48,495 bases of DNA from Methanobacteriota archaeon (GTDB taxonomy: Archaea; Thermoplasmatota; Thermoplasmata; RBG-16-68-12): the NCBI GenBank assembly GCA_005879065.1, contig VBLU01000083.1, positions 1 through 48,495 on the forward strand. The letters run 5' to 3'. The first letter of the stretch is position 1. Every line of letters starts with the position of its first letter. The notes beneath the pieces are model-generated. The model ran no database searches, had not been told where the DNA came from, and saw nothing but the letters and a program-made list of their open reading frames with translations. Made by a program: the position numbers and the translations under genes. Positions 22,305 to 41,629 of the stretch are shown piece after piece.

Positions 22305-22834
22305 TTGTCCCCGGTCTTGCTCACCGGCTTCGTAACATTCGAAGGCATTGATGGTTCCGGGAAGACCACTGTCGAGGCGTCGAAGAGGACGCGAACGCAA
22401 TCACGGAGTCATTCCTGTTTCTCGCAGATCGTTCGGCCCACATCCCGCAGATCCGCTCCCATCTCGAGAAGGGCGACCTGGTCCTCTGCGACCGGTACGC
22501 GGACTCCACGTACGCATACCAGGGCGCACGATTGGTCGGCGTCATTCCGGATCCGATTCGGTTCCTGCAGAATGCGAGTCGAGGATGGCTTCTGTCCCCC
22601 GATCTCACGATCCTCCTCCGAGTCTCCCCGGAACTCGGGATGGAACGGATTAAGGATCGACCGACGAAGATCCGGTTCGAAGACCTCGCCCTCCTTCGTC
22701 GGGTCGCGGCGAACTACGACCGACTCGCGAGGTCCCGTCGCTTTGCCGTCCTCGACGGCGCTCGGTCCGCGGACGTCGTCAGCGACGACGCGATTTCGGC
22801 GATCGAGAAGCGGCTCGGCCGCGGGCGAACATGA
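22305..22834 (+). pseudogene. tmk: Thymidylate kinase, disrupted by internal loss plus frame change
   Basis: The P-loop part FVTFEGIDGSGKTTV is in the frame of 22305. The remainder (GVEEDANAITESFLFLADRSAHI...VLCDRYADSTYAYQG...) is in the frame of ORF 22532..22834, open from 22352. About 35 aa, including the TREPGGT region, are missing around 22371-22376. Confidence 0.8.
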
Positions 22835-22982
22835 CGTTTGGGCGTTTCACCATCAACGCCTTCCTCAGAAGAAAGGCACGAGCGAAGACCGCGGCAGTCT
22901 CGAGATCGCCCCGTTCCAATTCGAGGAGGAACGCCTTCCCGAACAGGACGTGAAGGGTCTCATTCGCCTTCCCGGTCGACAT
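22779..22982 (-). CDS. Possible small helical protein divergent from the HerA-like gene
   Basis: 67-aa ORF (MSTGKANETLHVLFGKAFLLELERGDLETAAVFARAFLLRKAL...) with G/C-rich third positions. Its last 18 codons overlap the tmk 3' end antisense. No family recognised. Confidence 0.3.
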   Translation of the reverse strand: MSTGKANETLHVLFGKAFLLELERGDLETAAVFARAFLLRKALMVKRPNVMFARGRAASRSPKSRRR

Positions 22983-23084
22983 CTTGTCGTTGCAATTGTC
23001 CGCGGTGCACCATGAAAAGGTGCCCCAAGAATATCATCCGCGATTCTCATTTTCTCCATAAGCGCGACGCCCGCGCACGTGGAC

Positions 23085-23097
23085 AAAGCTATTTATG
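23085..23097 (+). promoter_or_regulatory. BRE/TATA-like element for the HerA-like gene
   Basis: AAAGCTATTTATG, about 45 nt upstream of ATG 23136. Confidence 0.45.
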
Positions 23098-23135
23098 CCG
23101 TCGCCCGGTTATCGCGCCGCGCATGGGATGCACGC

Positions 23136-24626
23136 ATGGAATCCGCGGCCCACCATAGGCCTTCCGCTCACCATGGCGACGGTTTTGTCGGCGTGATCTA
23201 CGGCGACATCGGCACGACCGCGTTCCGCTGTTCCGTCGCGGAGGCCGTGGAACGGAACGAGTTCGTGCAGGTTCAGCACGAGATGTGCGGCATAGTCCTT
23301 GGCCGGGTCGACGAGATCGAACGGAAGACGGATCTCTCCCTGGACCGTGCGCAACTCCTCGGAGACGGCAATCCCATCGACGTGGAGGAGCGGGTGTCCG
23401 CCCAAATCAGCGTGATTGGATACCGCGACGATCGGGGTCTTCTCCAGGTTCCCAGGACCCCCTTTCGCGCCGGAGAGCCTGTCCACCTCGCCGAGACCGC
23501 GACGATCGAAGAGGTGATCGGCCTGACGGAGGACAAGAAACACGGCGCCTACGTCGGCCTCTTGGCGGGTCATGAGGTGCCCGTCTATCTGGACATCAAC
23601 GCGATGGTCCAGAAGCACGTATCGATCCTGGCCAAAACGGGAGGCGGGAAATCGTACATCGCGGGCGTCCTCATCGAGGAGCTGATGAAACACCACGTGA
23701 CGTGCGTGATCCTTGATCCGCACGGCGAATACGCGTCCCTCCGGGAGAAGGGGAAGTCCCCTCACGGTGCCACGCGATTTCATGTCGAGCCCCGTGCCTA
23801 CGCGGACGTAATCCAAGTGTTTTCGCCCGACACCAAGGTGAATCCGGGGAGTCGACCGCTCAAGTTCACCCTGAGCAACCTCGACGCTCGAGACATCTTG
23901 TCGCTCACCGGCTCTGCGAGGGTTCGGACCCACCTCACAGCCTTGCGCAAAGCCCTCGACCTGCTGCGACAGGCGACGAAGGACTACACGATTCGGGACA
24001 TTGTCCGAGTGCTCGAGCGCGAGGAGGATCCCCAAAACGCCTCTTTGATCGACGAACTCGAGTACCTGAGCGAAGTCGAAATCTTTGCCAAGGAAGGGAC
24101 CCGAATCGACGAACTCGTGATCAAAGGGAAGACGACGATTATCAACTTGAAAGGGGTCCCACCGGATATCCAGGAACTCGTCGTGAATCGCCTGGCGACC
24201 GCGATGTTCGAATTACGAAAGCTCGGTCGAATCCCGCCCATGATGCTGGTCGTCGAGGAGGCCCACAACTTTTGTCCGCAGGTCGGGCAGGTCGCGTCGT
24301 CGAAGGTGTTCCGCACCTTGGCTTCCGAGGGTCGCAAGTTTGGATTGGGCCTTGTGATCATCACCCAGCGGGCGGCGAAGGTCGACAAGAACGTGCTGAG
24401 CCAGTGCAACACCCAAGTCATCCTGAAAGTCACGAACCCGAACGATCTAAAGGCGATCATCGCCAGTGTTGAAGGGCTCACGACATCGATGGCGGAGGAA
24501 ATCTCCCGCCTTCCCATCGGAGTCGCCATCATGACGGGCGGCGGACTTCAGATGCCTTTGATGGTGGAAGTGCGTCCGCGGGAGACGCGACACGGCGGAG
24601 AAAGCGTGAAGGTCATCGAGGACTGA
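23136..24626 (+). CDS. HerA-like (DUF87/COG0433) ASCE ATPase
   Basis: ORF 23079..24626. I moved the start to ATG 23136 because the TATA-like element lies inside the longer call. Walker A LAKTGGGKSY, Walker B MMLVVEEAHNF, GRKFGLGLVIITQR, and an N-terminal barrel-like region. Confidence 0.85.
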   Translation: MESAAHHRPSAHHGDGFVGVIYGDIGTTAFRCSVAEAVERNEFVQVQHEMCGIVLGRVDEIERKTDLSLDRAQLLGDGNPIDVEERVSAQISVIGYRDDRGLLQVPRTPFRAGEPVHLAETATIEEVIGLTEDKKHGAYVGLLAGHEVPVYLDINAMVQKHVSILAKTGGGKSYIAGVLIEELMKHHVTCVILDPHGEYASLREKGKSPHGATRFHVEPRAYADVIQVFSPDTKVNPGSRPLKFTLSNLDARDILSLTGSARVRTHLTALRKALDLLRQATKDYTIRDIVRVLEREEDPQNASLIDELEYLSEVEIFAKEGTRIDELVIKGKTTIINLKGVPPDIQELVVNRLATAMFELRKLGRIPPMMLVVEEAHNFCPQVGQVASSKVFRTLASEGRKFGLGLVIITQRAAKVDKNVLSQCNTQVILKVTNPNDLKAIIASVEGLTTSMAEEISRLPIGVAIMTGGGLQMPLMVEVRPRETRHGGESVKVIED

Positions 24627-24928
24627 CCGTTTCCTCCGGGTGGTCCCCTACCAATTGGATTCTCGGTGATCCGGAGCCGGGCCAGCCGACCGGGTGTGCC
24701 GAGTGAATACAAAGGTGCCCATTGCTACTCACAAGAATACGTGTTTCTCAATAGCACTCGCGCTGTCCGAGGCGTAGTTGGCGTAGAGACCCATGTCGGT
24801 TTTGCACGCAAGGAGACAACAACGGCCAAAGAAGTGCGAACACAACCCGAAGTCCCTTGGAAAGCCTTCGGGCGATCTTAACCCGGCGCGCATTCCGATG
24901 CGAATACGAGTGCGCCGGAGCGAATAGG

Positions 24929-26221
24929 ATGGTCGCCATCGCTCAGGTGCCCAGTCCGGATACGTCATGGCCGGCCGCGCCGAGTCATCCCGCGCCTTCC
25001 GCCAATTCTGCCAGGGTGCCGCGCATTGCCTTGTACTCGCAGGGAATGGTCGGCTTCGGTCACATTCGACGTAACGCTTCGATCGCCCAAGCCCTTCGCC
25101 ATTCCACGCTGCAGCCAGACGTCATGTTGATTGCCGAAGCCTGGCAGGCCGGAGCGCTCCTCATGCCTCCCGGCGTGGACTGTGTGACGCTTCCCGCGCT
25201 CCGTCGTGAAGCCGACGGTGGCTACAACCCGCGTTTTCTCCTCGATGTTTCCGAGGGAGAACTCATCGCCTTGCGGAGCCGGGTGATCCGCAGTGCGATG
25301 GAAGTATTCGCCCCGGACCTCTTGGTCGTGGATTACTTGCCCCTCGGTGTCGCCGGTGAACTCGCTCCAACCCTGGAATTCTTGAAACGACGGGGTAAGA
25401 CCCGCCTGGTCCTTGGTCTCCGTGACGTGCTCTACGACCCGGAGACTGTCAAGCGTTCGTGGGCGAGCCATGAAAATATCGTCGCGATCGAAAATTTCTA
25501 CGACTCCGTCTGGATCTACGGTGATCCCACCGTCTTCGACCCGCTTCGCGAATACGATCTCGTGGAGTCTGTGGTGACGAAGGCGCGACACACGGGATAC
25601 TTGGACCAACGCCCGCGGCTTGAGTACGCGAAGGCAGAGGCTGCGCCCCTCGTCGCGAATCTTCCGTCGGGTAAGATTGCGTTGTGTCTCGTTGGAGGTG
25701 GATACGACGGAGGTGCCCTCGCGGAGGCTTTCGTTCAGAGCGATTTGCCTCTCGATACGACGGGTGTCGTTGTGACCGGTCCGTTGATGCCCTGGGAAGA
25801 GCGCCAGCACATCCGCCTCGAGGCCGAGGGACGCTCTCAGTTCCGCGTCCTGGACTTTGTGCACGACCCGACACCGTTGATCGATCGCGCCGACCGGATC
25901 ATCGCTATGGGAGGCTACAACACGGTATGTGAGGCCCTCTCGTTTGAGAAACACGCCTTGATCGTGCCTCGGGTAAAACCCGAATCCGAGCAGTGGATCC
26001 GCGCCCAACGCCTCCGCGACCTCGGTTTGGTTGACGTGTTGCATCCGGGCGCCCTGACCCCTGAGGCGTTGACGGAGTGGCTCGCGAGCGATCTGGGACC
26101 CCCTCCAGCGAGTCGCAGTCGGATCGATTTCGACGGGTTGACCCGGATACCGGCGATGGTCGCGGAGCTGCTGGACGCCCCCTTCACCCACACGCCGGGC
26201 GACATGCCTCTGCCCTTATGA
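24929..26221 (+). CDS. MurG/GT28-like GT-B glycosyltransferase, copy 1
   Basis: ORF 24857..26221, start at ATG 24929. N-terminal GMVGFGHIRRNASIAQAL; C-terminal MGGYNTVCEALSFEKHALIVPRVKPESEQWIRAQRL. From memory it resembles COG4671-type predicted glycosyltransferases. Confidence 0.8.
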   Translation: MVAIAQVPSPDTSWPAAPSHPAPSANSARVPRIALYSQGMVGFGHIRRNASIAQALRHSTLQPDVMLIAEAWQAGALLMPPGVDCVTLPALRREADGGYNPRFLLDVSEGELIALRSRVIRSAMEVFAPDLLVVDYLPLGVAGELAPTLEFLKRRGKTRLVLGLRDVLYDPETVKRSWASHENIVAIENFYDSVWIYGDPTVFDPLREYDLVESVVTKARHTGYLDQRPRLEYAKAEAAPLVANLPSGKIALCLVGGGYDGGALAEAFVQSDLPLDTTGVVVTGPLMPWEERQHIRLEAEGRSQFRVLDFVHDPTPLIDRADRIIAMGGYNTVCEALSFEKHALIVPRVKPESEQWIRAQRLRDLGLVDVLHPGALTPEALTEWLASDLGPPPASRSRIDFDGLTRIPAMVAELLDAPFTHTPGDMPLPL

Positions 26222-27492
26222 CCGCATCCATGAGCAACGGGATTCGCACGTTTCTGATGTACGCCCAGGATGGCAAAGGGATGGGGCACATCACCCGGAC
26301 CACGACGATCGCCAAGCATCTCCTCGCGGCCCATCCGAATTCAGTCGCCTACATCACGACGGAGTCCCCGGTGATCGGGGAGTTCACCCTCCCTGAACGT
26401 TGCGACTACCTGAAGTTGCCCAGGCGAATGAGCCCGACCACGATGGTCGAGACGGAAGCGGAACATGAGGCGGCCATCGATCATTTCCGGATCCACGTCC
26501 GATCCCGAATCCTGCGAGAGGCTGCGCTCTCGTTGGTCCCTGACCTCGTGCTGGTCGACCATGAACCCCTCGGTCGGAAAGGGGAGTTTCGGGAAGGCCT
26601 GTACGCGTTGAAGGAGAAGTCCCCCTCGACGAAGTTCGTGTTCGGCCTGCGAGACATCATGGACGGTGTCACTCGGATTCGGGCCCAGTGGCGAGACCTG
26701 GGGGTCTACGACGCCCTTGAGAACGTGTACGACGGCATCGCCGTATACGGCTCGCGGGACATGTATGACGTGGCGGAAGCCTATGCCATCCCGCCGTCCG
26801 TGCGTCCCAAGTTGCACTATTGCGGGTACGTCGTCCGGGATGTCGAGTGTACGAATATAGACGAGATTCGTGAGCGGTACCACGTCCCTTCGAAAGGACC
26901 CCTAGTCGTCGCGACCGTCGGCGGAGGAATCGACGGGTATCCGGTGCTGGAGGCCGCGTACACGGCCGTCCAACACTTGCAGTCGGTCCATCCCAATCTC
27001 AACGCCGTCTTCGTGACCGGACCGCTCATGCCTCTCGAACAGCAGGAGAAACTTCGCGCGCGAGCCACGGCGACGTGCCGCGTCCTTACCCGGGCCGACA
27101 ATTTTCAGCTCATGGCCGCGGCCGACGCCATCGTCAGCATGGGCGGATACAACAGCGTGTGCGAAGCACTGTCTGTCGGTCGACCTCTAGTAATCGTGCC
27201 CCGGTCCACGCACAAAATCGAGCAGCAGATCCGAGCCGAGACCCTCGCAGCGCACGGCCTCGCTCGATGGATCCACCCCAAAGACCTGAACGGGGGCGAA
27301 GGCCTCGCCCAGGCTCTGGAATGGGCGTTGACGCGGGATCCGCGGGAGCACGCTCGACTCGTTCGAAAGATTATCCCCTCCTTCGACGGAGCTTCAAACC
27401 TGACCGCGTACGTTTCTGGCTGGCTGAGCGAAGAGGGAATGGGTGGCCGAGCCGATGCCCGGGAGCAACTGTCAACGGAGGGATGGGCATGA
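26218..27492 (+). CDS. MurG/GT28-like GT-B glycosyltransferase, copy 2
   Basis: ATGA overlap with copy 1 (ATG 26218, TGA 26219-21). GKGMGHITRTTTIAKHL and MGGYNSVCEALSVGRPLVIVPRSTHKIEQQIRAETL. It is a paralog of copy 1. Confidence 0.8.
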   Translation: MTASMSNGIRTFLMYAQDGKGMGHITRTTTIAKHLLAAHPNSVAYITTESPVIGEFTLPERCDYLKLPRRMSPTTMVETEAEHEAAIDHFRIHVRSRILREAALSLVPDLVLVDHEPLGRKGEFREGLYALKEKSPSTKFVFGLRDIMDGVTRIRAQWRDLGVYDALENVYDGIAVYGSRDMYDVAEAYAIPPSVRPKLHYCGYVVRDVECTNIDEIRERYHVPSKGPLVVATVGGGIDGYPVLEAAYTAVQHLQSVHPNLNAVFVTGPLMPLEQQEKLRARATATCRVLTRADNFQLMAAADAIVSMGGYNSVCEALSVGRPLVIVPRSTHKIEQQIRAETLAAHGLARWIHPKDLNGGEGLAQALEWALTRDPREHARLVRKIIPSFDGASNLTAYVSGWLSEEGMGGRADAREQLSTEGWA

Positions 27493-28469
27493 ATCCGGCC
27501 GGGACGCTCCAACCGGACGAGACCCACGCGGTATTGAGCGGAGCGCTGCGCGAATTGGAGGGAGTTGGCGCTCGGCTCGAGGGTTGGACCGCGGACGATA
27601 CCTTCACGCGGTTCGGGAAACGGCGCGTGGTCCGCTATGAGCTAGAAGCCCGGTTGGCCGGAGGTCCCCATATCTGTCGATACAAATGGGTCGGCAAATT
27701 TTACGATCGGGATGAAGACGCCCGCAGAGTCGCCACCGTCCTTCGCGAGCTGGGGGAGTCGAACGCCCACGCTGAATTCGGTCTCGCGGTTCCGAGCGTC
27801 CTCGCTTACCACGCACCACGGCGTCTCTTGTTGTTGACGTACGAGTCGGGCGAGTCGATGACGACGGCGATGGCACACGACACGCAGACGATTTTAGCCG
27901 CGATCGGGCGCGCGCTGGCGACCTTGCACTCCCTTCCCATCGCCCCGACTCGGACGCTCTTTCCGAACACCGTCCTCGAGGATATCCGGCCAAGAGTTCG
28001 GGATCTTTGCGAACGGTTCCCCAGCGAAGCTAGTTCCCTCGAGAGCGCCCTCGATGCCCTGGAGCGCGATGCACCGCCATTTCCCTCGGCGCCGTCCTTC
28101 GTCCATGGCGACTTCGGCCCTGCCAATCTCCTCTGGAGGGCGGGCCACGTCGTCGTGTTGGATTTCGACAAATGCGCGCTAGGTGACCCGGCGTGCGACC
28201 TGGGCAACCTATTCGCACAGCTGTTCCGAACTACAATCAAAAGGCCGGAAATCCTGAGGGATTTCCCCTCCGCGCGCGCGTCGGTCCTCAGGTCCTACAT
28301 CCATTGGTCTCCGCCCAACTCGGATTTGGACTCACGGATCGCATGGTATGAGCGGGCAACTTTGTTGCGGAAAATTCACGGATTGCTGTTCAGCAAGAGC
28401 CGAGACCAACATCCGGACGCGGTTCGGCAACGTCAAGCGGAAGCGGTCCAGTTGCTGGGGATGGAATAG
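27489..28469 (+). CDS. APH-fold (aminoglycoside/choline-kinase-like) phosphotransferase K1
   Basis: ATGA overlap with GT copy 2. Lys motif WVGKFY, catalytic loop VHGDFGPANLLW, and metal site VLDFDKCALGDPACDLG. All are intact. Confidence 0.8.
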   Translation: MNPAGTLQPDETHAVLSGALRELEGVGARLEGWTADDTFTRFGKRRVVRYELEARLAGGPHICRYKWVGKFYDRDEDARRVATVLRELGESNAHAEFGLAVPSVLAYHAPRRLLLLTYESGESMTTAMAHDTQTILAAIGRALATLHSLPIAPTRTLFPNTVLEDIRPRVRDLCERFPSEASSLESALDALERDAPPFPSAPSFVHGDFGPANLLWRAGHVVVLDFDKCALGDPACDLGNLFAQLFRTTIKRPEILRDFPSARASVLRSYIHWSPPNSDLDSRIAWYERATLLRKIHGLLFSKSRDQHPDAVRQRQAEAVQLLGME

Positions 28470-28471
28470 CC

Positions 28472-29953
28472 ATGCGCGGTCAACCGGAACAACGGAATTC
28501 GCCGCCGACCTCGGTCCAGCCCCTGGACTCGGAGCGTGCATCCCATTCGGGGAGTGACGAACGGTTCGACCCCGGCCGAACAGACGGGTTCCCTTTCGAT
28601 CCCGACTTTCCGCAGCTCCCGATCGCGGCGAACCCCGACCTGATGCTCGACGTCTTCCGAGCCAAACTGAAGCCGGTCGCGAACAAGAAGTACGAAATCC
28701 AAGCGTGCAAGCCGTTCCGCTTCCGGTGCCGGCAGTCAAAGTCTCGTCATGTGTTACAATACACCCTCCGCATCGCCGAGCCGTCTACGGGTCGCCGGTG
28801 GGACCAGCCGGTGACTGGGGTCCTGTATGCTGACGAAAGCAAAGCCGAGCGGCGGTGGCAAGAGATGCAGGCCAAGGATCCACGCCGAGGAATTCCTTCG
28901 GAGTGGCTCACGTTCGAACCGGTCAGCATCGTTCCTGGCCTCCGAATGCTGGTCCAGATCTTTCCCTACGATCGGAGACTTCGGACCCTCGGGCCGATGA
29001 TAGGAGCGGTTGGGCGCGACGTTGACCCCCTACTCCTGGCCCGCATCGGTCCCGGCGAATGGGAAGTGGAAGATCGGACAATCGAAACGGCGAGGTACCG
29101 AACCGAACGCGGGGCCGTTCTCCGCTACTCAATACGGGCACGAGATGTCCAGTCGGATCGGCGTGAGACCTTGGCCTCCTACTTGAAAGTGTATCGAAAC
29201 GAGCGCGGTGCGGAAACATGGCAGTTCCTGCGATTGATGTCCGAGAAGGCCGGAGGCGGACCACAGCCCTACGACGTGATTCGGCCGATTGCCTATTTGA
29301 GCGAGCACCGCACCCTTGTGATGGAAGAAGCTCCCGGCGCTCCGCTGACCCAACTGCTGCTTCGCGCGGGAGATCCGGCCGAGGCGGTACGACCCGTCGC
29401 TCGGGCTCTTGCAGTTTTCCATCAAGACCATATCCCGGCCACCCGGCACGAATCGCTCACGGACGCATTGAAAACCATTCGAAAGGCGGCAACTCTCGTC
29501 GAGTGGACGTGCCCCGAGGCGCGGGATGCGATCCAAGCGATCATGGCCGAAGTGACTGCTGGCTTGCAAGAGGCACCGCCTACGCCGATTCACGGGGATC
29601 TCAAGCCGGACCATCTCTTTGTGTCCGGCCAGCAGGTGCTCTTCATCGATCTCGACTCGGTCGCGTTCGGCGACCCGGTTCGAGACGTGGCATCATTTTT
29701 CGCTCACCTGGCAAGCAGGGCCGGGATGCGTTCGATGCCCGAAGATCGGGCTTGTGCAGCGGCGGCCGCCTTCGTTGAAGAATACTTCCGGCACGCGCCG
29801 AGTTCGTGGCGCAAACGTCTCCCCCTGCACAGCGCAGCCGCCTTCCTTGAGGTGGCGGCAGGCATCTTCCGGGCTCAAGAGCCGGGTTGGCGGGAAACGC
29901 TCGCTTGGATCATCGAAGCGGCACAACGCGCCTGCGAGGAGGTCCCTGATTGA
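28472..29953 (+). CDS. APH/protein-kinase-like phosphotransferase K2 with about 190-aa N-terminal extension
   Basis: Starts 2 nt after the K1 stop. LKVYRNERG, IHGDLKPDHLFV and FIDLDSVAFGDPVRDV. The N-terminal extension (DPDFPQLP...VTGVLYADE) resembles a degenerate extra N-lobe of the same family. Confidence 0.8.
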   Translation: MRGQPEQRNSPPTSVQPLDSERASHSGSDERFDPGRTDGFPFDPDFPQLPIAANPDLMLDVFRAKLKPVANKKYEIQACKPFRFRCRQSKSRHVLQYTLRIAEPSTGRRWDQPVTGVLYADESKAERRWQEMQAKDPRRGIPSEWLTFEPVSIVPGLRMLVQIFPYDRRLRTLGPMIGAVGRDVDPLLLARIGPGEWEVEDRTIETARYRTERGAVLRYSIRARDVQSDRRETLASYLKVYRNERGAETWQFLRLMSEKAGGGPQPYDVIRPIAYLSEHRTLVMEEAPGAPLTQLLLRAGDPAEAVRPVARALAVFHQDHIPATRHESLTDALKTIRKAATLVEWTCPEARDAIQAIMAEVTAGLQEAPPTPIHGDLKPDHLFVSGQQVLFIDLDSVAFGDPVRDVASFFAHLASRAGMRSMPEDRACAAAAAFVEEYFRHAPSSWRKRLPLHSAAAFLEVAAGIFRAQEPGWRETLAWIIEAAQRACEEVPD

Positions 29954-32346
29954 CCGGGTCAGACGAGGGACCGGAGGACCAGGAGGGACGATCGCCGCGG
30001 AAGCGTGTTGATGGAGAGGAGGAGAATCGGCCTGCGGCTGAACGAACGTACTCGGAACTGCTCGACCAGATTCGCGTCACGGACGAGCGGTACGCGGAGC
30101 TCCTAGACGAGCTGAGGTCCCTCAGCGAGCCGAGAGCGTCTGCTGGTGGGCGCGGGACTCGGTCGACCAGCGTGCCCCCAATGTCGATTTCCGAATCAGG
30201 AAGCGTTCGTTTTCGGGACCTCCCCACGACCCGACGTCGCTGGATCGCCAAGTCGGTCGCGGTGATCCTCACCGGCCTCTCTACCTTTGCGTGGCTGCTG
30301 GGCTATCTCGCGTCCGCCTACAACATCCAGGTGGCGTTGTTCGCCCTCCCACGGGAATTCGGTCGCTCATTCCTCTCCGATTTCCAGCTCTTACTCTTGC
30401 AGATTGCCGCACCGGTTCTCGCTTGGGGAATCTGGGGCGTCATCGCCACTCAAGAAAGGCGGCGATGGGTCCGGGCCCACGTCCTCAGCTCCCCGAGCCG
30501 GTCCGGGTCCGAAATCTCTCCCTCGCAGGTCCCTGGGACCAGCCCATCTACGGTTCGGAGCGATTCAGAACCGGGTCGGAAACAAACCCTCCGGCGGCTC
30601 TTGTCCTATGTGAGGCCGCACTGGCCCTATGCGGCCGGGATCATGGCAGGACTCGTCATCGCCGCCCTGATGGACCTAACGCAGGTGTGGATCCTTGCAT
30701 TTCTCTTCATCGGGCAGGTTGTTCGGCTGGGGCACGTGGAGCTCCTTCCAAATGTGCTCCTCCTGCTCGGCACGACCTTCGCCGTCAAAGAGGTCTCCTC
30801 GTTTGTCAAGGATTATCTGTCGGAGATCCTGGCTCAGAAGACCGTGCACCGACTCCGATCCGATCTATACGAGAACATCGAGCGAATGCCCATGAGCTTC
30901 CTCGATACGTCGCGTTCCGGCGAGCTCATCTCCCGCGTCGTCAGCGACACGAACGAAGTGGAACGGGTCCTCACGGACAATGTCGCCGATTTCCTCTCGA
31001 ACGCGGTTATGGTCGCGGGCGCCCTCGGCCTGCTGTTCTTCGTGAACGCTAGACTCGCTCTACTCGTTACGCCACCCGCCCTCGTCATGGTCATCGTCGT
31101 GAACCGATTCAAGAAGTCCATCAAACAGTCCTCGAGAAAAATCCGCGAAGCGGTCGCCGAACTCACCGCGAAGGCCTTCGAGGTCATCTCCGGGCTCCGT
31201 ATCGTGAAGAGTTTCCGGATGGAGCACCACGAGGCAAACGCCTTTCGCGATCGGTCCTGGGCGATCGCCCGGGCCAAGGTCCGCCTGGCTCGGCTCTCCG
31301 GAGCCTATTCTTCGACCGTGGATTTCCTGACCTTGTGCTCCCTCGCGGTGTTCGTCTGGTTCTCGGCGCCGGCGGTGATTAGCGGCGACCTGACGGTCGC
31401 AGTAGCGGTTGCCTTCCTAGGGTACATGGACAAGGTGTTCAAGCCTCTCGTCGTCCTCAGCAAGGTCAATTTCACGGTCCAGAAGGCCGTGGCGGCCGCT
31501 GACCGCATCTTCGAATTCATGGATGCAAAAGTGGAAATCTTGGAGGCCCCCGGAAGTCTCGTGCCGCAGACGATCGAGGGACGCATCCAGTTCGACCGGG
31601 TCACGTTCGGATATCGGCCTAACCGATACGTGCTCGAAGACTTCTCGTTGACGATCGAGCCTGGGGAGACGGTTGCGGTCGTCGGATCGAGCGGTGTGGG
31701 CAAATCCACGATCGTCAACCTGCTCCTCCGGTTCTACGAGCCGGTCGCGGGCCGGATTTCTATCGACGGATACCCCCTCGATCGGTTGAGCTTGAGTTGC
31801 CTGCGGAACAAGATCGGCCTTGTCATGCAGGAGCCGGTCCTCTTCTCCGGATCGATTCGGGAGAACATCATGTATGGCGACGTTCACGCATCGGAGGAGA
31901 ACGTCGTGTTGGCAGCGCAGTCCGCGAATGCCCACGATTTCATCGAGGGCATGCCGAAGGGATATGATACGCAGATTGGCGAGCGCGGAGTCACCCTGTC
32001 CGTCGGCCAGAGGCAACGGATTGCGATTGCTCGTGTTCTCCTGAAGAACCCGAGCATCCTCATACTTGATGAGGCGACATCGAACATCGACTCCGAATCG
32101 GAATCGCTCATTCAAGACGCGTTACGCAAGCTTGCACAACGCAGGACGATGATCATCATCGGGCACCGGCTTTCGTCGATCATGGATGCGGACCGGATCG
32201 TGGTGCTCGAGGATGGAGGGATCGCCGAGGTCGGGACCCACGAAGATCTCCTAGGGAAAGGAGGAGTCTACGCGCGGTTGTACGAGGCCCAGATTGATCG
32301 GGGAGCTCCCGAGGAGGCGCCCCACAACCAACTCGACGCCGTGTAA
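29950..32346 (+). CDS. MsbA-like ABC exporter (TMD-NBD) with about 200-aa N-terminal extension
   Basis: The TTG start overlaps the K2 stop (TTGA). Walker A GSSGVGKST, signature LSVGQRQR, Walker B ILILDEATS, and H-loop GHRLS. The extension has a coiled-coil-like acidic segment, two extra TM helices and an S/P-rich linker. Confidence 0.9.
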   Translation: MTGSDEGPEDQEGRSPRKRVDGEEENRPAAERTYSELLDQIRVTDERYAELLDELRSLSEPRASAGGRGTRSTSVPPMSISESGSVRFRDLPTTRRRWIAKSVAVILTGLSTFAWLLGYLASAYNIQVALFALPREFGRSFLSDFQLLLLQIAAPVLAWGIWGVIATQERRRWVRAHVLSSPSRSGSEISPSQVPGTSPSTVRSDSEPGRKQTLRRLLSYVRPHWPYAAGIMAGLVIAALMDLTQVWILAFLFIGQVVRLGHVELLPNVLLLLGTTFAVKEVSSFVKDYLSEILAQKTVHRLRSDLYENIERMPMSFLDTSRSGELISRVVSDTNEVERVLTDNVADFLSNAVMVAGALGLLFFVNARLALLVTPPALVMVIVVNRFKKSIKQSSRKIREAVAELTAKAFEVISGLRIVKSFRMEHHEANAFRDRSWAIARAKVRLARLSGAYSSTVDFLTLCSLAVFVWFSAPAVISGDLTVAVAVAFLGYMDKVFKPLVVLSKVNFTVQKAVAAADRIFEFMDAKVEILEAPGSLVPQTIEGRIQFDRVTFGYRPNRYVLEDFSLTIEPGETVAVVGSSGVGKSTIVNLLLRFYEPVAGRISIDGYPLDRLSLSCLRNKIGLVMQEPVLFSGSIRENIMYGDVHASEENVVLAAQSANAHDFIEGMPKGYDTQIGERGVTLSVGQRQRIAIARVLLKNPSILILDEATSNIDSESESLIQDALRKLAQRRTMIIIGHRLSSIMDADRIVVLEDGGIAEVGTHEDLLGKGGVYARLYEAQIDRGAPEEAPHNQLDAV

Positions 32347-32480
32347 AACCCATCCCGCCTAAGGAACTGAGTTGTCGCCGACCGAATTCGACAAGTGTCA
32401 AAACACCTCTGTGGTACAACTGGCCCAACATGTGGCCGACCTGATTACAATCGGGGCCAGATAGGCCTCAGTTGGCGACC

Positions 32481-32492
32481 AAGCCTTGATAG
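32481..32492 (+). promoter_or_regulatory. Candidate promoter of phosphoesterase 1
   Basis: AAGCCTTGATAG, about 36 nt upstream of ATG 32520. The same AGCCTTGAT block occurs at the same spacing upstream of the paralog (41592..41601). Confidence 0.4.
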
Positions 32493-32519
32493 GACCGATC
32501 TCGTACGAGCCCGGATCGC

Positions 32520-34142
32520 ATGAAGGGGATGGCCGCGACGTATCAGGGACCCCGAGCGGGACGGGTCGATTTTCGCGGAAGGGCGAGGGGCTTGGCTCGA
32601 ACGACGCGGAAGTTTGGAGCGCTCGGCACCTCCGGGGACAGCGTGGAGCCGCGCCCGTGGGCCGTCCGCGTCAAGCCCGATTCCGACAAGGAGCTGTTAG
32701 AGGAACTTAGGAAGTCATTGACATGGATGAAGGCCCTCGAAGGCGGACAGGTGGATCGAACTCCGAAACAGGCATCGATCGCGGGCAGCGACATCAAGGA
32801 ACCGCGACGGATCCCAAGAAAGCGGCACGGGTCCGCCACCTTGCGTCGGAGAGCGGTCGCCGTCCTCGCTCTCTCCCTCCTCATCGCCGTGTCCGCGGGA
32901 TGGGTCCTGTTCCAGAAGGGAGCGGTCCAAAAGAATCCGTTCGATACCTCCCGGCCGCGCTGGAAGGACGAGTCGGCCACGCACTTCACGTTTGCCGCCG
33001 CGGGAGACTTTGGGGGACCGGGCAATAACGATTCTCTCGGCCTCGTGGGACGTGCTCGAACGGCTGGAATGTCGTTCTTCCTTGCCCTGGGCGACTTGGG
33101 ATACACGACAAGCGCATCCGGCTGGTGCACGCAAATGAAACGGCTCGTGCCGGAGATTGTCATCATCGCCGGTGATGACGGGAGCAACGCGGACGGAAAC
33201 ATGTCGCAGTATGTCGCGAGCTGTCCATACCCGCTCTCCTCTCCGATGGTCGCGGGTAAAGGGACTCCCGGCTACGGCTACGAGTATTACTTCGACTACC
33301 CTCGGGAGAAGCCCCTCGCGCGATTCATCCTGCTCTCGGCCGGACTCTCGGGCGTCGATTACAACTACAGCCGGAAATCACCGCACACGGAGTGGGTCGA
33401 GGACAAAGTCGCCAGCGCCCGAGACGCGGGCATCCCATGGGTCATCGCGGGAGTCCACAAGGAGTGCATCACGGTGGGCAACGATGGACACTGTCCCATG
33501 GGACAGGACCTCTTCGACGAGCTCGTGGAAGCCCATGTGGACCTAATCTTGGTAGGTCACGACCATGTGTACGAGCGGAGCAAACAGCTCAGGGTCTCGT
33601 CGAGCTGCGAGTCCGTCAACTCGACGAACCAGTTCGAGCCGTCTTGCGTCGCGGCGAGTGGAACCCAAGGCGTCTACGCGAAAGGCGAAGGCACCATCGT
33701 CGTCGTGCAAGGTGTCGGAGGGCGAAGCTTCGACAACGTGGCGATTGACGGAAGCAACCAGGCGATGGGCTACTTCGACGCGGTGATGGGCGCCAATGCC
33801 AACACGCAAGGGCGGCTCTCTGGCTTCGGATCCGTGTTCTACGAGGTCACGGCCGATTCGATTGGGGCGAAAACCGATTTCTGTCCGCCCGACTCGACCG
33901 GCACCGACGGCCGTTGCACGTCGAATCCTGGCGCGGTGTTCGCAGACCAGTTTGCGATCTCTACAGACACCGGTTTGGGGCCTGTGTCCTATACTCGGGC
34001 TTCGGGCATCTTGCCTGATGCCCCTCCGGCATCGAGTGCCTCGTCCTTCCCTCAGGACCCCAATCAAAATGGACTTGATCAACCAGGGATTCTGCTATCG
34101 AGGGATGAGGAACCGCCTCTTCGCGTCTGGACCGCACGTTAG
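32520..34142 (+). CDS. Membrane-anchored purple-acid-phosphatase-like metallophosphoesterase (MPE1)
   Basis: About 110-aa basic N-terminal region, one TM (AVAVLALSLLIAVSAGWVLF), then AAAGDFGG, LGDLGYT and GHDHVYERS. The expected GNH(D/E) position reads AGDDG. Confidence 0.8.
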   Translation: MKGMAATYQGPRAGRVDFRGRARGLARTTRKFGALGTSGDSVEPRPWAVRVKPDSDKELLEELRKSLTWMKALEGGQVDRTPKQASIAGSDIKEPRRIPRKRHGSATLRRRAVAVLALSLLIAVSAGWVLFQKGAVQKNPFDTSRPRWKDESATHFTFAAAGDFGGPGNNDSLGLVGRARTAGMSFFLALGDLGYTTSASGWCTQMKRLVPEIVIIAGDDGSNADGNMSQYVASCPYPLSSPMVAGKGTPGYGYEYYFDYPREKPLARFILLSAGLSGVDYNYSRKSPHTEWVEDKVASARDAGIPWVIAGVHKECITVGNDGHCPMGQDLFDELVEAHVDLILVGHDHVYERSKQLRVSSSCESVNSTNQFEPSCVAASGTQGVYAKGEGTIVVVQGVGGRSFDNVAIDGSNQAMGYFDAVMGANANTQGRLSGFGSVFYEVTADSIGAKTDFCPPDSTGTDGRCTSNPGAVFADQFAISTDTGLGPVSYTRASGILPDAPPASSASSFPQDPNQNGLDQPGILLSRDEEPPLRVWTAR

Positions 34143-34516: not shown

Positions 34517-35389
34517 TCACAGGACGCGTGCACCTTCGTTGTCGACCTCGCATCGCTGCAAGGTGCCGAACTTGCGGTAGAGGCTCGCTAGCTGCTCCGA
34601 ATTCCCGGTGGCGAACAAGGAGTTGCCGAGCATGGCCATCGTCGCCCTCCCGAACATCCGGCTTGCTCGGATCACCTCGAGCATGGTCCGATTTGCAAGT
34701 CCCGTCTCTTCCGCAAACCGGTTCCCGAGGTCGAACAATCGTTCGAAGCTTGGGGACCGGGAAAATTCATCGACCAATGCCCCGCCAACCCGATTGATCG
34801 TCGCGACCTTCGGCGCATCGCGAAGGATGCTCTTCGTCGGGATCTCCTGTCCGAGGACCGCGAGCAGAAGGTCCGCTTGCACAGGGAAGGTTCGAACTTC
34901 GCTGTAGCCGGGCGCGCCCGGTTTCCACCGGAGGTCCATGCCTCCGAGGGAGGCGGGGACGACATCGCCAAGTCCCGTGGCGCATTCGACCTCCGTCTCA
35001 TGGGCGATGGCCACGAGCTCGTCGCGAGGCAGTCCTCCTCCGAGCGCCTCATCCAGCGCGAGCGCCGTGCTGAGGGCCGCGGCCGCACTCACTCCGAAAC
35101 CTTGCGACACGGGCAAGGGGGTTTCGCTCAGGATTTTGATCTCGAGCGACCGCGAACCGGTGAGCTTCTCGACGACGCGCTGCGTGACCTCGGCCTTCTG
35201 GCGGCGCTCATTCACCATGATGTCGAGGGAGGAGCGTCTCGCTTCCCGGACCTTGGCGACCGTCCGGACACCGAGGCTTAGCGACAGCCCGGCACCGCGA
35301 GATCCCTTGGCTCGGGGATCCGGGTCCTCATGGACCTCGAAGAAGGCCGTTGCGTGTCCGGGGCAGAACGCCTCACCCTCGGACACCAT
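34517..35389 (-). CDS. GHMP-family kinase, pantoate kinase-like
   Basis: ORF 34517..35548, start at ATG 35389 (MVSEGEAFCPGHATAFF). PVSQGFGVSAAAALSTALAL and ATGLGDVVPASLGG. It is adjacent to coaBC. Confidence 0.7.
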   Translation of the reverse strand: MVSEGEAFCPGHATAFFEVHEDPDPRAKGSRGAGLSLSLGVRTVAKVREARRSSLDIMVNERRQKAEVTQRVVEKLTGSRSLEIKILSETPLPVSQGFGVSAAAALSTALALDEALGGGLPRDELVAIAHETEVECATGLGDVVPASLGGMDLRWKPGAPGYSEVRTFPVQADLLLAVLGQEIPTKSILRDAPKVATINRVGGALVDEFSRSPSFERLFDLGNRFAEETGLANRTMLEVIRASRMFGRATMAMLGNSLFATGNSEQLASLYRKFGTLQRCEVDNEGARVL

Positions 35390-36484
35390 GCAGGACGGCC
35401 CGCCACACCCGCTCCGCCGCGAGCGACTTCGATCCCTCGAATGTCTCCGAGTGACCTTTGCGGTCGAAGATCGTGATGGAGGTCGTGTCTCCCTTGACCT
35501 TCGATACGTCGTTGGCCACGACGAAGTCCAAATCCGCTTCCTTCGCAAGCGTCATCGCCCGGGACTTGAGCTCCGCCTCGCCGACCCCGGCTTCGGCCTT
35601 GAACCCGACGAGGGCCTTCCGTGTGCCCTTGCGGAATCGCCCAAGCAGTTTGGGGGTGGGCTCTAGGTCCAGGGTGAGCGTCCCTTTGCGGCTCGGGATT
35701 TTTCCCGTCTGCTTCTTCACCGGACTGAAGTCGGCGACGGCAGCAGGCACGACACAAATGTCCGCATCCGTCTTCTCGGCCATGCTGGCCAGGTCTTCCG
35801 TCGTCTCGAACGACTTGTAGGGAAGCCAAGGTGGGACCGGCACCTCGTGGCGTCCGAGCCACAATTCCACATCGGCTCCATGCTCGAACGCGGTTCTCGC
35901 GAGTTCGATGCCGGTCCCGCCGGACGACCGGTTCGTGACCACGCGGACATCGTCGATGGGTTCCACCGTTTCGCCTTGTCTTCGTCGCGGCGCGGGTCGA
36001 CAAACTCAATCCCGAGTTCCCGCAGGCGGCGGACGTTCGCGGCGACGGCCGGGTTGTCGATCATGGACTCGTGGGCTGCCGGTGCAAGGAGGATCGGGAT
36101 GCCCGAGCCGAGTGCATTCGTCGCGTACGTCGTCACAGTAGTGTCATCGATTCCCTGAGCGATCTTGCCCATCGTATTCGCAGTGCAGGGAGCGATCAAG
36201 AGGAGGTCGGCCTTCCCGTCGCGCCCGCACATCTCGAGATACTCCATGGAGCCGGTGATGGCGGTGACCACGGCGTGCCCGGTCGCGTATTCCAGGGCGT
36301 TCGGATGGACGATCTCGAGTGCCGATCGGGTCAGGACCGCATGGACGTCGGCCCCGTGGCGGATCAGCTCATGGGCCAGCTTCACCGTTTCCACGGCTGC
36401 GATGCTGCCCGTGACCCCGAGGACGATCGTCTTGCCGTGGAGCTTCGGGCTCTTCCGTCCGCGCAGTCGCTCCGCCGGATGCAT
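35373..36484 (-). pseudogene. coaBC: Bifunctional CoaBC (PPC decarboxylase / PPC synthetase), two frames with a missing linker
   Basis: The CoaC part ([13 protein letters not shown]...[11 protein letters not shown]...[12 protein letters not shown]) is in the frame of ORF 35717..37111, starting at ATG 36484. The CoaB part ([21 protein letters not shown]...) is in the frame of ORF 35373..35966. The frames switch near 35969-35972, and about 35 aa (linker plus first Rossmann strand) are absent. Confidence 0.8.
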
Positions 36485-40219: not shown

Positions 40220-41338
40220 ATGGAATCGACCGGTCGCCTCCCCGAGGATCCTGCGCTGCCCGCGCTCGAGGCCATCCGGATCAAAGGGCTTGCCCGCGCC
40301 ATCCCGGGGCTTGAACTGGACAATGATCCGGTCGAGCTTCGCCTCTGTAACTATGTTGCCGGATCGCGTGCGACGTTCGAGGCCCGCGTTGGCGACCGTC
40401 GCTTCGCCGTCAAGGCGTATGCGGAGGATCCGGCGCCCGAAGCGCAATTGTACCGAAGGCTCTCCCGGATGGGACTCGGGGGCGATTTCGGGGCTCGCGT
40501 CCCCAAGCTCATCACGACGAGCCGGGAGCTGAAGGTCCTCGTCATGAGCTGGCTCGAAGGTCGGCCTTTGAGTCACCTGATCAGAAGGGGACTCGGCGAA
40601 CGAGCGGGTCAACTCGCGGCCTCCTGGTTGTGGCACGCTTCACGACGTCGGATTCGGATCGGTCCGCCATGCGGACCTGGGCGCATGCTCTATCAGGCAG
40701 GTGTTTCCGCGGGCGTGCTAGGGGCGTCCGACCGACTCCTCGGTGCCGACGCCAAAGCAGCCACCAAGAAGCTGGTTCGGATGCAACCCGGCGAGAAGCC
40801 CCGTCAGCTGGTCCACGGGACCCTCTACGCGCGGCACATCCTCGACTTGGGCGACGGCCCCGGTGTAATCGACTGGCAGCAGTTCGGGCAAGGCCCGGTC
40901 GAGGTCGACGCCGGGATGTTCCTGGCCACGATTTCGCGCCTTGCCTTCCGGCACCCGGACGTGGCGGACGAGGCGGCGCGGGCGGAGGAGACGTTCATGG
41001 CGAGGACGCGAGGTCTGGTGGACGCTCGCATCGTGGAATGGTACCGAGCCGCGGGGCTGCTACACTTGGCCGGGAGCGGGTTGAAGACCGGTCTAAGGCG
41101 GTCGGTCCCTACACCCGAGGCGCACGCCCTCGTTGCCGAAGCCTCCCGACGAGCCGAGCTCCTGATCGGAAGCCATCCGATTTTGTTGGCCGAGGCACCG
41201 ACCACGTTTGCGCGGATTCGATCCATCTTCACGGCTCGTCCGCGCGCTCCCAGCCTCGTCCACCCGGCGGTCCCCATGGCGAAAGTCGGACCCGATCTGA
41301 AGAACCCCGGTGGAACCGATGGAACGAGACTCCGATGA
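40220..41338 (+). CDS. APH-fold kinase-like protein K3, predicted pseudokinase
   Basis: Same family as K1/K2 (DPALPALEAI, FAVKAYAED, VIDWQQFGQGPVEVDAG). The catalytic loop reads VHGTLYARHIL in place of HGD....N (Thr codon at 40820..40822). Confidence 0.8.
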   Translation: MESTGRLPEDPALPALEAIRIKGLARAIPGLELDNDPVELRLCNYVAGSRATFEARVGDRRFAVKAYAEDPAPEAQLYRRLSRMGLGGDFGARVPKLITTSRELKVLVMSWLEGRPLSHLIRRGLGERAGQLAASWLWHASRRRIRIGPPCGPGRMLYQAGVSAGVLGASDRLLGADAKAATKKLVRMQPGEKPRQLVHGTLYARHILDLGDGPGVIDWQQFGQGPVEVDAGMFLATISRLAFRHPDVADEAARAEETFMARTRGLVDARIVEWYRAAGLLHLAGSGLKTGLRRSVPTPEAHALVAEASRRAELLIGSHPILLAEAPTTFARIRSIFTARPRAPSLVHPAVPMAKVGPDLKNPGGTDGTRLR

Positions 41339-41629
41339 ATCCGATCAAGGAACTTGCCGACGACCCCGGATCCCTGCGAATTGCGGTCATTCGCGAGCAG
41401 GGGTTGCCGCCGCGATTCCGTCACTAGGCCGTGCAATCGCTGCCTCCGTCCCAACGATTCCATACATGACCGACTCTCGGCCCCCGAATGTCGTCTTGTG
41501 GACTGCCGCTGCCCGAGACTGTGGAGACCGTCCGCTTATCCGTGGTGCAATGTGGTCCCTCTTGTACCAGACCCGAATGCATCCGGTGCCGCAGCCTTGA
41601 TGCGGCCGACCTCCTCCCGTCGGCGGAGC

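Follow-up and report, generated by a model that had tools for sequence, protein, structure and literature searches.

A glycosyltransferase, kinase and ABC transporter cassette shared by soil Thermoplasmata and bacteria, with a possible role in the export of phosphorylated glycoconjugates

In the assembly of the lipopolysaccharide (LPS) inner core, glycosyltransferases (WaaC, WaaF and WaaG) and sugar kinases (WaaP, WaaY and KdkA) work together with the ATP-binding cassette (ABC) transporter MsbA. In the Escherichia coli O9a system, the kinase-fold enzyme WbdD, a kinase-methyltransferase with a coiled coil and a domain resembling eukaryotic kinases, phosphorylates a cytoplasmically built glycan before ABC export (PMC3482155). 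The amicoumacin pair AmiN/AmiO follows a related sequence of events, in which a kinase of the aminoglycoside phosphotransferase (APH) fold acts inside the cell and, with export, a dedicated phosphatase reverses the phosphorylation (PMC6156654). Here we describe a gene cassette from a Thermoplasmata archaeon (Methanobacteriota archaeon, GenBank assembly GCA_005879065.1, contig VBLU01000083.1, positions 1 to 48,495; this whole stretch of 48,495 nucleotides is referred to as the window) that encodes two glycosyltransferases (GT1 and GT2), two APH-fold kinases (K1 and K2) and an MsbA-like ABC transporter. It is accompanied by a membrane-anchored protein resembling purple acid phosphatases (PAP1), a third APH-family protein (K3) and a second PAP-like protein (PAP2). 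The same gene set recurs in dozens of archaeal and bacterial loci, and we tentatively read it as a unit that makes and exports a phosphorylated glycoconjugate.

Layout and conservation of the cassette

Five genes on the forward strand form the body of the cassette: GT1 (24929-26221, 430 aa), GT2 (26218-27492, 424 aa), K1 (27489-28469, 326 aa), K2 (28472-29953, 493 aa) and ABC (29950-32346, 798 aa, with a TTG start). GT1/GT2 and GT2/K1 are joined by ATGA overlaps, K1/K2 by a gap of 2 nt and K2/ABC by a TTGA overlap, and PAP1 (32520-34142, +, 540 aa) follows after a spacer of 173 nt. All six open reading frames (ORFs) and every junction agree with an earlier reading of the sequence alone (the sequence-only reading), which had described the five genes as translationally coupled. 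The interval that it had delimited, ending with PAP1, was too short: a Pfam scan of the rest of the window returned an APH gene, K3 (40220-41338, +, 372 aa), and a Metallophos gene, PAP2 (41354-43180, +, 608 aa), 15 nt apart and with K3 approximately 6 kb away from the operon. This pair is flanked by M20 peptidase/HhH-GPD genes and by an enolase-superfamily gene, and no such pair is present at that site in the relatives L078 and L080. As orthologs of K3 lie inside the cassettes of relatives, K3 is a core component that has been displaced in the window genome.

A locus scan with one genome per species returned 70 loci, all from metagenome-assembled genomes (MAGs) and mostly from soil. They belong to Thermoplasmata (“Methanobacteriota archaeon EA_x”), many Gemmatimonadota, Rokubacteria, Verrucomicrobia, Betaproteobacteria, Eisenbacteria, Chloroflexota, Rubrobacteraceae and other Actinomycetota, Binatia, Nitrospirota and Cryosericum. 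Gene-order maps were made by seeded tblastn; single-linkage all-versus-all clustering of ORFs was dropped because of shadow ORFs in the high-GC DNA. Synteny was counted where a locus extends 7 kb or more upstream of K2, which left 36 loci, from soil Thermoplasmata and some ten bacterial phyla. A glycosyltransferase is present in 35 of them, an ABC transporter in 33 and a K1-like kinase in 27, and the genes are co-directional with K2 in 33.

Three arrangements can be distinguished. The archaeal order is GT1, GT2, K1, K2, (K3)n, (UDP-sugar dehydrogenase), (NTP-transferase), ABC, PAP. Bacterial type A reads (ATP-grasp-)GT1, GT2, K1', K1, ABC, K2, (K3)n, (K4), (phytase), and type B, found in Rubrobacteraceae, other Actinomycetota, Chloroflexota, Binatia and some Rokubacteria and Betaproteobacteria, reads GTx, GT4, GT4, K2B, ABC, K2. 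In L080 the 4-nt overlaps are kept, although its proteins are only 48-69% identical to those of the window. Fusions join K1 to K2 (approximately 820 aa, in many Thermoplasmata), an APH protein to ABC (L070), ABC to K2 (L047) and an APH protein to a glycosyltransferase (L059); the APH partner of ABC is K1 in L070 and in L028. Together, the order kept in dozens of loci from two domains, the retained overlaps and the fusions exclude chance adjacency and mark the cassette as one functional unit. The sequence-only reading had held that an order conserved in no related genome would indicate chance adjacency; the order is kept across archaea and bacteria. In L008 (positions 1-10700) a partial second cassette (GT1, K1, K2, K3) lies directly upstream of the full one (GT2, K1, K2, ABC, PAP).

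A neighbor-joining tree of K2, which is rough (midpoint-rooted, no support values), places the Thermoplasmata as one clade nested among bacteria. The archaeal cassettes share a chromosomal site, with a HerA-like (DUF87) gene upstream where that flank was captured and with DUF357, pantoate-kinase-like GHMP and CoaBC genes downstream. Tree and site together suggest a single acquisition long ago, with vertical inheritance since then, and the archaeal cassette has no mobility genes beside it. Nearly identical cassettes were seen in MAGs from one soil study that are assigned to different phyla, Betaproteobacteria and Gemmatimonadetes (L016 and L017, L024 and L040), which reflects either very recent transfer or binning error.

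Proteins of the cassette and their neighbors

Both glycosyltransferases contain the Pfam region Glyco_tran_28_C (GT1: 31.6 bits, 2.1e-7; GT2: 41.7 bits, 1.6e-10), above its gathering cut-off of 22, and GT2 also matches Glyco_trans_1_3 (1.5e-7). They are paralogs of each other (33% identity, E 1e-48), in line with their earlier description as two paralogous MurG/GT28-like enzymes of the GT-B fold. GT1 carries the motifs GFGHIRR (42) and GGYNTVCEAL (328). Orthologs in archaeal and bacterial loci are 59-90% identical to GT1 and 56-81% identical to GT2, and glycosyltransferases of archaeal and bacterial cassettes are 60-74% identical to each other. A GT2-family profile is equidistant in the PDB from YjiC/OleD, of glycosyltransferase family GT1, and from MurG, of family GT28 (E 6e-9 to 1e-7). 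The murG equivalog TIGR01133 is not reached (GT2 27.7 bits against 250.25; GT1 no match), nor are the NCBIfam models of macrolide and rifamycin glycosyltransferases (MGT 29.5 against 260, OleI 22.6 against 700, Rgt 17.2 against 800). The nearest named relatives in NCBIfam are uncharacterised glycosyltransferases of the MJ1255/VC2487 type, and in a search of plasmids GT2 was approximately 32% identical to glycosyltransferases of rhizobial megaplasmids that lie beside GT4 genes.

All three kinase-family proteins match Pfam APH (PF01636, cut-off 23.2): K1 with 93.4 bits (2.4e-26), K2 with 60.9 bits (2e-16, residues 239-418) and K3 with 49.2 bits (7e-13). K1 and K2 are distant paralogs (26% identity). 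K1, whose orthologs are 44-90% identical, has canonical catalytic motifs (HGDFGPAN at 206, LDFD at 224) and keeps the β3 lysine. In K2 the catalytic loop reads HGDLKPDH (374), with His in place of Asn, the metal-binding motif IDLD (392) is intact and Lys239 is invariant. The earlier claim of two kinases with intact HGD..N and DxD motifs is thus right for K1 and for the DxD of K2, but not for the K2 loop. The heptose kinase WaaP has a His at the same place, +5 of its catalytic loop.

Ahead of its kinase domain K2 has a domain (residues ~40-192) with the β-β-β-α-β-β pattern of a kinase N-lobe, which can be aligned with the protein's own true N-lobe (hhalign E 8.5e-5, probability 60%). The N-terminal ~190 aa, including a PFRFRCRQS motif, are among the best conserved parts of the protein, which argues for a functional duplicated lobe and not a decaying one. 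Its likeness to an N-lobe had been noted before and stands, but the word “degenerate” then attached to it does not fit a region so strongly conserved. The AlphaFold model of K2 (predicted local distance difference test, pLDDT, 83) has a generic APH/choline-kinase-like fold, with APH, methylthioribose (MTR) kinase and choline kinase as top Foldseek matches. Other structural neighbors include the self-resistance kinases for corramycin, amicoumacin (AmiN), capreomycin and viomycin, as well as LxmKY and TvaE. K2 has no sequence match in the PDB, by single sequence or by family profile. We rejected a maltokinase/GlgE-type assignment (N-terminal cap plus APH), given that K2 has no PDB sequence match and no Pfam match to Mak_N_cap; Mak structures are present in the PDB. 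The K2 family comprises 525 clusters at 50% identity (E<=1e-30). Hundreds of relatives are approximately 55% identical over 90% of the length, a level that also holds between the two domains, and a look-up of cluster members returned metagenomic proteins only.

Against Pfam Kdo/WaaP (PF06293, cut-off 21.3 bits), the fused ortholog P0007 reaches 28.1 with its K2 half, K1 of the window scores 15.2, and K2 of the window has no match at E<=1. Equivalogs of antibiotic phosphotransferases are not reached (APH(3') 27.9 against 205, Cph 20.5 against 390, Vph 17.8 against 400, APH_6_hur 15.5 against 27). The best NCBIfam match of both K1 and K2 is LxmK (42.3 and 37.8 bits, E 5e-11 and 1e-9), below its cut-off of 315. 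The same holds for the cassette proteins generally: their NCBIfam matches are all far under the curated cut-offs, and they are therefore members of superfamilies and of no named family. At the level of Pfam, the domain families anticipated from the sequence (Glyco_tran_28_C, APH, ABC_membrane and Metallophos) were all found, together with ABC_tran.

K3 differs from the other two at the catalytic loop. The motif HGT[LF]Y[AD]RH, in which Thr replaces the catalytic Asp, together with IDWQ is present in all eight aligned K3 sequences, archaeal and bacterial (HGTLYARH in the window), and the β3 lysine is kept (AVKAY, 63). Judged by these motifs, K3 is an apparent pseudokinase or, failing that, an enzyme of a non-canonical kind. 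Its identity to the APH genes found within the L080, L076 and L078 cassettes is 56-63%, and to the bacterial copies after K2 it is 49-50%. One to four such copies follow K2 in most bacterial loci that have sequence downstream of it.

The transporter has the fused transmembrane (TM) domain and nucleotide-binding domain of a type IV exporter (Pfam ABC_membrane 9e-42, ABC_tran 2e-33), with intact Walker A (579), signature (683) and Walker B (703) motifs. MsbA is among its best full-length models, below the equivalog cut-offs (TIGR02203 475.8 bits against 602; NF008381 387.3 against 867). An N-terminal extension of approximately 200 aa contributes two extra TM helices (99-117 and 147-165) and a linker of 39% Ser/Pro before the six-helix domain. 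TM prediction and Pfam agree here with the MsbA-like half-transporter, its extension, two helices and S/P linker as described from the sequence. L006-L008 retain the extension, L004 and L027 have a shorter form of it, and the bacterial orthologs, of ~600 aa, lack it. At the site of the TTG start of the window gene, the L007 ortholog has a methionine start. A helical motif, ELL[DE]ELR[KS]L, occurs in the cytoplasmic N-terminal tails of ABC (residues 50-58, 30097-30123), PAP1 (58-67, 32691-32720) and PAP2 (152-161), and is also kept in the PAP orthologs P0134, P0139 and P0144; the likeness could point to a docking helix common to these proteins, or be due to chance.

PAP1 is a single-pass protein (TM 113-131) with a predicted outward PAP-like domain. 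Its Pfam Metallophos match is 6.6e-5, and its sequence matches in the PDB are only PAPs and the wheat PAP phytase. Foldseek confirms the fold that had been proposed: the top 27 PDB matches are all PAPs (E 1e-13 to 1e-10), followed by PhoD (4e-8), at approximately 15-17% identity to PAP structures. The mean pLDDT of the whole model is 67, with blocks of the ectodomain mostly at ~65-95. The wider family, which is large, extracellular and often has PKD or Ig-like domains, aligns to the consensus GDFG / GDLGY / AGNHDxG / H / GHDHxYER. PAP1 has GDFG (162), GDLGY (191), AGDDGSN (217), GVHKE (311) and GHDHVYER (346), that is, four of the five motifs of the PAP signature with its seven metal ligands (GDxG/GDxxY/GNH(D/E)/VxxH/GHxH). 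In PAP1 and its closest clade the third motif reads AG--DDGSN, the Asn-His having been lost by a deletion of 2 aa where the earlier description had noted GDDG in place of GNH(D/E); more distant Thermoplasmata orthologs at the equivalent genomic position keep AGNHD. The deletion is real and is also present in independent relatives.

PAP2 (TM 209-227) is a membrane-anchored paralog of PAP1 (51% identity, E 9e-153). Its alignment to PAP1 has a 28-aa gap over the GDLGY motif, observed solely in the window, and it also reads ADFGG for GDFGG and GTHDMGG for GNHD. Lacking the Asn-His of motif III (PAP1) or motif II (PAP2), the two proteins more likely bind the product or hydrolyse it weakly. To judge from these motifs, both are probably weak or inactive as hydrolases while still under purifying selection. 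The extracellular phosphoester remodelling once envisaged is accordingly doubtful for the window organism. An intact relative (P0134) lies directly after a K2 gene, inside the cassette, in L076 and L077. PAP genes accompany nearly all archaeal cassettes, being found downstream of ABC in L004-L008, L027 and L076-L081, but of K2 in L076/L077. At this position PAP occurs in archaeal cassettes only; it is an archaeal accessory and not part of the universal core.

In some bacteria the place held by the PAP-like gene in archaea is taken by a non-homologous enzyme, a secreted β-propeller phytase (PF02333, with a signal peptide). It is present in L036 (1482-2600), L058 (2060-3178), L028, L029, L016 and L024, six loci assigned to three phyla; with a partial phytase ORF in L021 they become seven, in four phyla. 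The gene stands just after K2, or after K3/K4 copies behind K2, with an intervening BlaR1-like gene in L016 and L024. BlaR1-type M56 sensor genes adjoin several bacterial cassettes.

Other genes that accompany the cassette are mostly those of carbohydrate metabolism. Sister cassettes add a sugar-1-phosphate nucleotidyltransferase (NTP_transferase) and a UDP-glucose/GDP-mannose dehydrogenase. In type B cassettes of Rubrobacteraceae and other Actinomycetota (L044, L045, L048, L057, L060, L061 and L066), three to five Sulfotransfer_3 genes are present, which suggests a sulfated and phosphorylated version of the product; these sister cassettes otherwise consist of one related glycosyltransferase, two GT4s, a short APH protein, ABC, K2 and up to five tandem K2 paralogs. 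In Gemmatimonadales an ATP-grasp protein (~330 aa) is fused to GT1 or encoded directly before it (L012, 3667-4650; L015, L018, L019, L022, L023, L032, L035, L037 and L049). Its full-length best PDB match is a RimK-like α-L-glutamate ligase (7qys, E 2e-6), with local matches to ITPK1 and a borderline Pfam match to Ins134_P3_kin (inositol-trisphosphate 5/6-kinase). An inositol-phosphate product, which the phytase neighbors and the Ins134_P3_kin match might bring to mind, is not established by these data, the ATP-grasp protein being closer to RimK-type ligases, and we retain it solely within the speculative reading. The plasmid search, in which all relatives were distant ones, also returned K2-like kinases, ~27% identical over their full length, on a plasmid of Ca. 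Manganitrophus (L083, CP114557.1), in a cluster with several glycosyltransferases, an alginate-lyase-family protein, a radical SAM protein, a histidine phosphatase, a split ABC transporter and an alginate-export porin.

Two non-coding regions of the window (both +) are conserved. Upstream of GT1, the block GTGCC.AGTGAATACA...ACGTGTTTCTCAATAG (24693-24754), a putative promoter or regulatory region, has columns invariant in five archaeal loci, in a spacer that is otherwise ~70% identical or unalignable. The spacer between ABC and PAP1 (32347-32519) contains the blocks GAATTCGACAAGTGTCAAAACAC... and, ~37 nt before the ATG, CCTTGATAGG, which may form a separate promoter/operator for PAP1; they are invariant in six archaeal loci whose coding regions are just 51-84% identical. 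Within it, the conserved stretch 32383-32500 holds GTGTCAAAACAC (GTGT/ACAC inverted) and CCTTGATAGG. From their pattern of conservation, the blocks before GT1 and PAP1 are probably two promoter/operator elements, in keeping with the TATA-like element of its own that the sequence-only reading had given PAP1, and an Rfam search of the spacers returned nothing but a distant tRNA.

A stand-alone HerA-like ATPase (DUF87, 23079-24626) is encoded immediately upstream and is kept in archaeal loci with a captured flank. It is absent from the bacterial loci compared, and as an archaeal neighbor only it was not counted as part of the cassette. Two housekeeping genes of the window, coaBC (35376-36445, -) and the thymidylate kinase gene tmk (22317-22849, +), are each split over two frames, with intact orthologs in L080 and L004. 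The splits represent sequencing or assembly frameshifts, or else pseudogenes; with at least two housekeeping genes so affected, local sequence errors are possible.

Proposed function and competing explanations

We propose that the cassette is a self-contained unit for the synthesis and export of a small, multiply phosphorylated glycoconjugate, with a probability of roughly 0.45. On the inner side of the membrane, GT1 and then GT2 would transfer sugars from nucleotide-sugar donors to an acceptor that archaea and bacteria have in common, which could be soluble (a sugar or a polyol) or a sugar linked to polyprenyl-(di)phosphate. K1 and K2, which appear catalytically competent from their motifs, would phosphorylate hydroxyls of the glycan, and K3 would act as a non-catalytic binder or scaffold. 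ABC, as a putative homodimer in physical proximity to the kinases, would move the anionic product out, where it would meet a phosphoesterase, PAP-like in archaea and a β-propeller phytase in some bacteria. The donor, the acceptor, the product, the action of the kinases on the glycosyltransferase product, the direction of transport and any role of the PAP-like proteins are what we infer in this scheme.

Since glycosyltransferases 60-74% identical and K2 proteins ~55% identical occur across domains in hosts with differing envelopes, the cassette should depend on universal metabolites only. A Thermoplasmata-specific lipoglycan, one of the roles entertained in the sequence-only reading, is hard to square with bacterial glycosyltransferases that similar. 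That reading had also wavered between biosynthesis and resistance. The anabolic carbohydrate genes that accompany the cassette favor an exported small glycan, rendered polyanionic by phosphate or, in type B, by sulfate, over drug resistance, but the product put forward in that reading remains wholly inferred.

Several points weigh against our proposal. No family of the cassette has a characterised member. Were the acceptor a membrane lipid, the 60-74% identity of the glycosyltransferases would be surprising given how archaeal and bacterial lipids differ. Among loci with Pfam-annotated genes there is no priming phosphoglycosyltransferase, polymerase or ligase, and a lipid-linked route would thus need enzymes of the host. 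The top structural neighbors of K2 are antibiotic and small-molecule kinases and not glycan kinases like WbdD, which may reflect the content of the PDB. Some ABC proteins of the exporter fold import their substrates. Phytases adjoin the cassette in only about seven bacterial loci, and the PAP of the window is degenerate at a metal-binding motif. Finally, the mixing of bacterial phyla may in part be binning error, as phylum labels of bacterial MAG contigs from a single soil data set may mislead.

The recurrence of a kinase inside, an exporter and a phosphatase outside, with two unrelated phosphatase families, would also suit a secreted bioactive glycoside handled as a phosphorylated pro-form: the kinases would protect or tag it, ABC would export it and the outer phosphatase would activate it. 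AmiN/AmiO is a precedent (PMC6156654), among the structures closest to K2 are kinases that confer self-resistance to corramycin, amicoumacin, capreomycin and viomycin, and the cassette is accessory, horizontally transferred and confined to soil organisms. We nevertheless hold this to be unlikely, because the cassette consists of just glycosyltransferases and kinases, without the scaffold and tailoring enzymes of antibiotic clusters (aminotransferases, dehydratases, nonribosomal peptide or polyketide synthases); a protecting group would not call for three to five conserved kinase families with an invariant pseudokinase among them; and the phosphatase is missing in most bacterial cassettes and degenerate in the window. 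Slightly less probable again is a mobile resistance or detoxification island, in which glycosyltransferases and kinases inactivate a toxin (as do Mgt/OleD with Mph, and Rgt) that ABC then pumps out. It would account for the spread over many phyla and archaea, for the BlaR1-type M56 sensor genes, for the PDB matches to OleD, YjiC and a hygromycin kinase, and for the weak NCBIfam likeness of GT2 to macrolide/rifamycin glycosyltransferases and of K1 to APH(3'), capreomycin and viomycin kinases; those family scores, however, are far under the cut-offs (MGT 29.5 against 260; APH(3') 27.9 against 205). Nor does inactivation explain the paired glycosyltransferases, the three to five kinase families, the pseudokinase, the NTP-transferase, the UDP-sugar dehydrogenase, the GT4 pairs or the three to five sulfotransferases, and the archaeal cassette, long established and passed on vertically at a single chromosomal site, is not a recent mobile acquisition.

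Transport in the opposite direction seems improbable. It would make the cassette a salvage system, in which an outer phosphoesterase strips phosphate, the exporter-fold ABC protein imports (as a few proteins of this fold do) and the kinases and glycosyltransferases trap or process the substrate inside; phytase-class enzymes do adjoin the cassette in soil organisms, but a substrate-binding protein is lacking, glycosyltransferases serve anabolism, a phosphatase is missing from most cassettes and the sulfotransferase-rich sister cassettes would make no sense. We give still less credence to the modification of a peptide or protein, akin to that of RiPPs, peptides made on the ribosome and modified after translation, with APH-type kinases phosphorylating Ser/Thr (as LxmK of class V lanthipeptides and TvaC of thioamitides do), glycosyltransferases adding sugars and ABC exporting the result. 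LxmK is the best NCBIfam match of K1 and K2, Foldseek returned LxmKY and TvaE, and HGDLKPDH, the loop of K2, is similar to HRDLKxxN of protein kinases; against this, the LxmK scores of 42 and 38 bits compare with a cut-off of 315, the loci have no lyase partner, the ABC protein has no peptidase domain and no small ORF is conserved, those of 66 aa and 50 aa in L001-L003 being found nowhere else. That unrelated genes lie together by chance, for which nothing speaks beyond the generic nature of each family, has a negligible probability next to a set and order kept in dozens of loci from two domains with conserved overlaps and multiple fusions.

The synthesis-and-export proposal can be carried further, to a claim that we consider a long shot. 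The cassette and its sulfotransferase-rich sister form would make and export a new class of small polyanionic carbohydrates, oligosaccharides or glycosylated polyols that bear several esters of phosphate (or sulfate), released into the soil matrix by uncultured bacteria and archaea. There they could serve in metal chelation or mineral binding or as a phosphorus store, with the phosphate recovered by phytase-class ecto-enzymes. If so, the cassette would be a cross-domain microbial source for part of the unexplained pool of organic phosphomonoesters in soil, and the pseudokinase and, in the window lineage, the pseudo-phosphatase pair would have a new role as product-binding proteins.

Significance and relation to described systems

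The close relatives recovered are all uncultured, mostly soil MAGs (Gemmatimonadota, Rokubacteria, Verrucomicrobia, Eisenbacteria, Rubrobacteraceae and others), and the cassette appears to have crossed into a Thermoplasmata lineage and then been inherited vertically. A secreted or surface-bound polyphosphorylated glycan as product would bear on the envelopes of soil archaea, on transfer between domains and possibly on soil organic phosphorus; an ordinary envelope glycolipid would still mean a new pathway, of specialist interest only. The kinase with a duplicated N-lobe, the invariant pseudokinase, the fusions of kinase and transporter and the two unrelated families of extracellular phosphatases offer experimental handles.

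A full-text search of the literature for this gene combination returned nothing relevant. With NCBIfam scores far below cut-offs, no PADLOC system and no counterpart in the literature, the earlier statement that no characterised pathway has this composition still holds. A part in anti-phage defence, considered on account of weak TCAD9 matches and the HerA neighbor, was rejected: the glycosyltransferases, kinases and PAPs have no PADLOC matches, and ABC has only generic ATPase matches.

Taken protein by protein, the cassette glycosyltransferases share with MurG (GT28) and with family GT1 enzymes (OleD, YjiC, CalG) the GT-B fold and the C-terminal donor-binding Glyco_tran_28_C region, but reach neither the MurG nor the MGT equivalog. 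PAP1 resembles PAPs and PAP phytases in fold, in GDxG, in GDxxY with its PAP-specific Tyr, in a His at the place of VxxH, in GHxH and in its extracytoplasmic location. Unlike them, it is membrane-anchored, has a conserved cytoplasmic N-terminal helix and lacks the N-terminal fibronectin-like domain.

As a whole, the cassette shares with amicoumacin AmiN/AmiO and streptomycin StrA/StrK, which follow the same pro-drug logic, an inner APH-fold kinase, a transporter and a phosphatase, and AmiN is among the closer structural neighbors of K2. Those systems, however, combine large scaffold machinery with a single kinase, whereas the cassette has glycosyltransferases and three to five kinase families, and its phosphatases are PAP-like or β-propeller enzymes that are often absent. 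Closer in logic is the WbdD O-antigen system, where a glycan is likewise built by cytoplasmic glycosyltransferases and a kinase step precedes ABC export. The cassette differs from it in having no methyltransferase and no polymerising mannosyltransferases, and in its fused MsbA-like exporter, the Wzm/Wzt transporter of O9a being of the two-component type; the 50 best structural matches of K2 do not include WbdD. The closest logic of all is that of the LPS inner core (WaaC/F/G, WaaP/WaaY/KdkA and MsbA), with its cytoplasmic-face glycosyltransferases, protein-kinase-like sugar kinases and MsbA-type transporter. The K2 half of P0007 even passes the Pfam Kdo/WaaP threshold, although K1 and K2 of the window do not. 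The cassette nonetheless comes without lipid A or core genes, its glycosyltransferases are MurG/GT1-like and not GT9 or GT4, its ABC protein falls under the MsbA cut-off, and among its hosts are archaea and monoderm bacteria, which lack LPS. As it lacks defining features of both the LPS core and the WbdD systems, the cassette is a member of neither. We regard the gene set as a variant of a glycoconjugate synthesis-export cluster, with a modest chance that the class of product is itself new.

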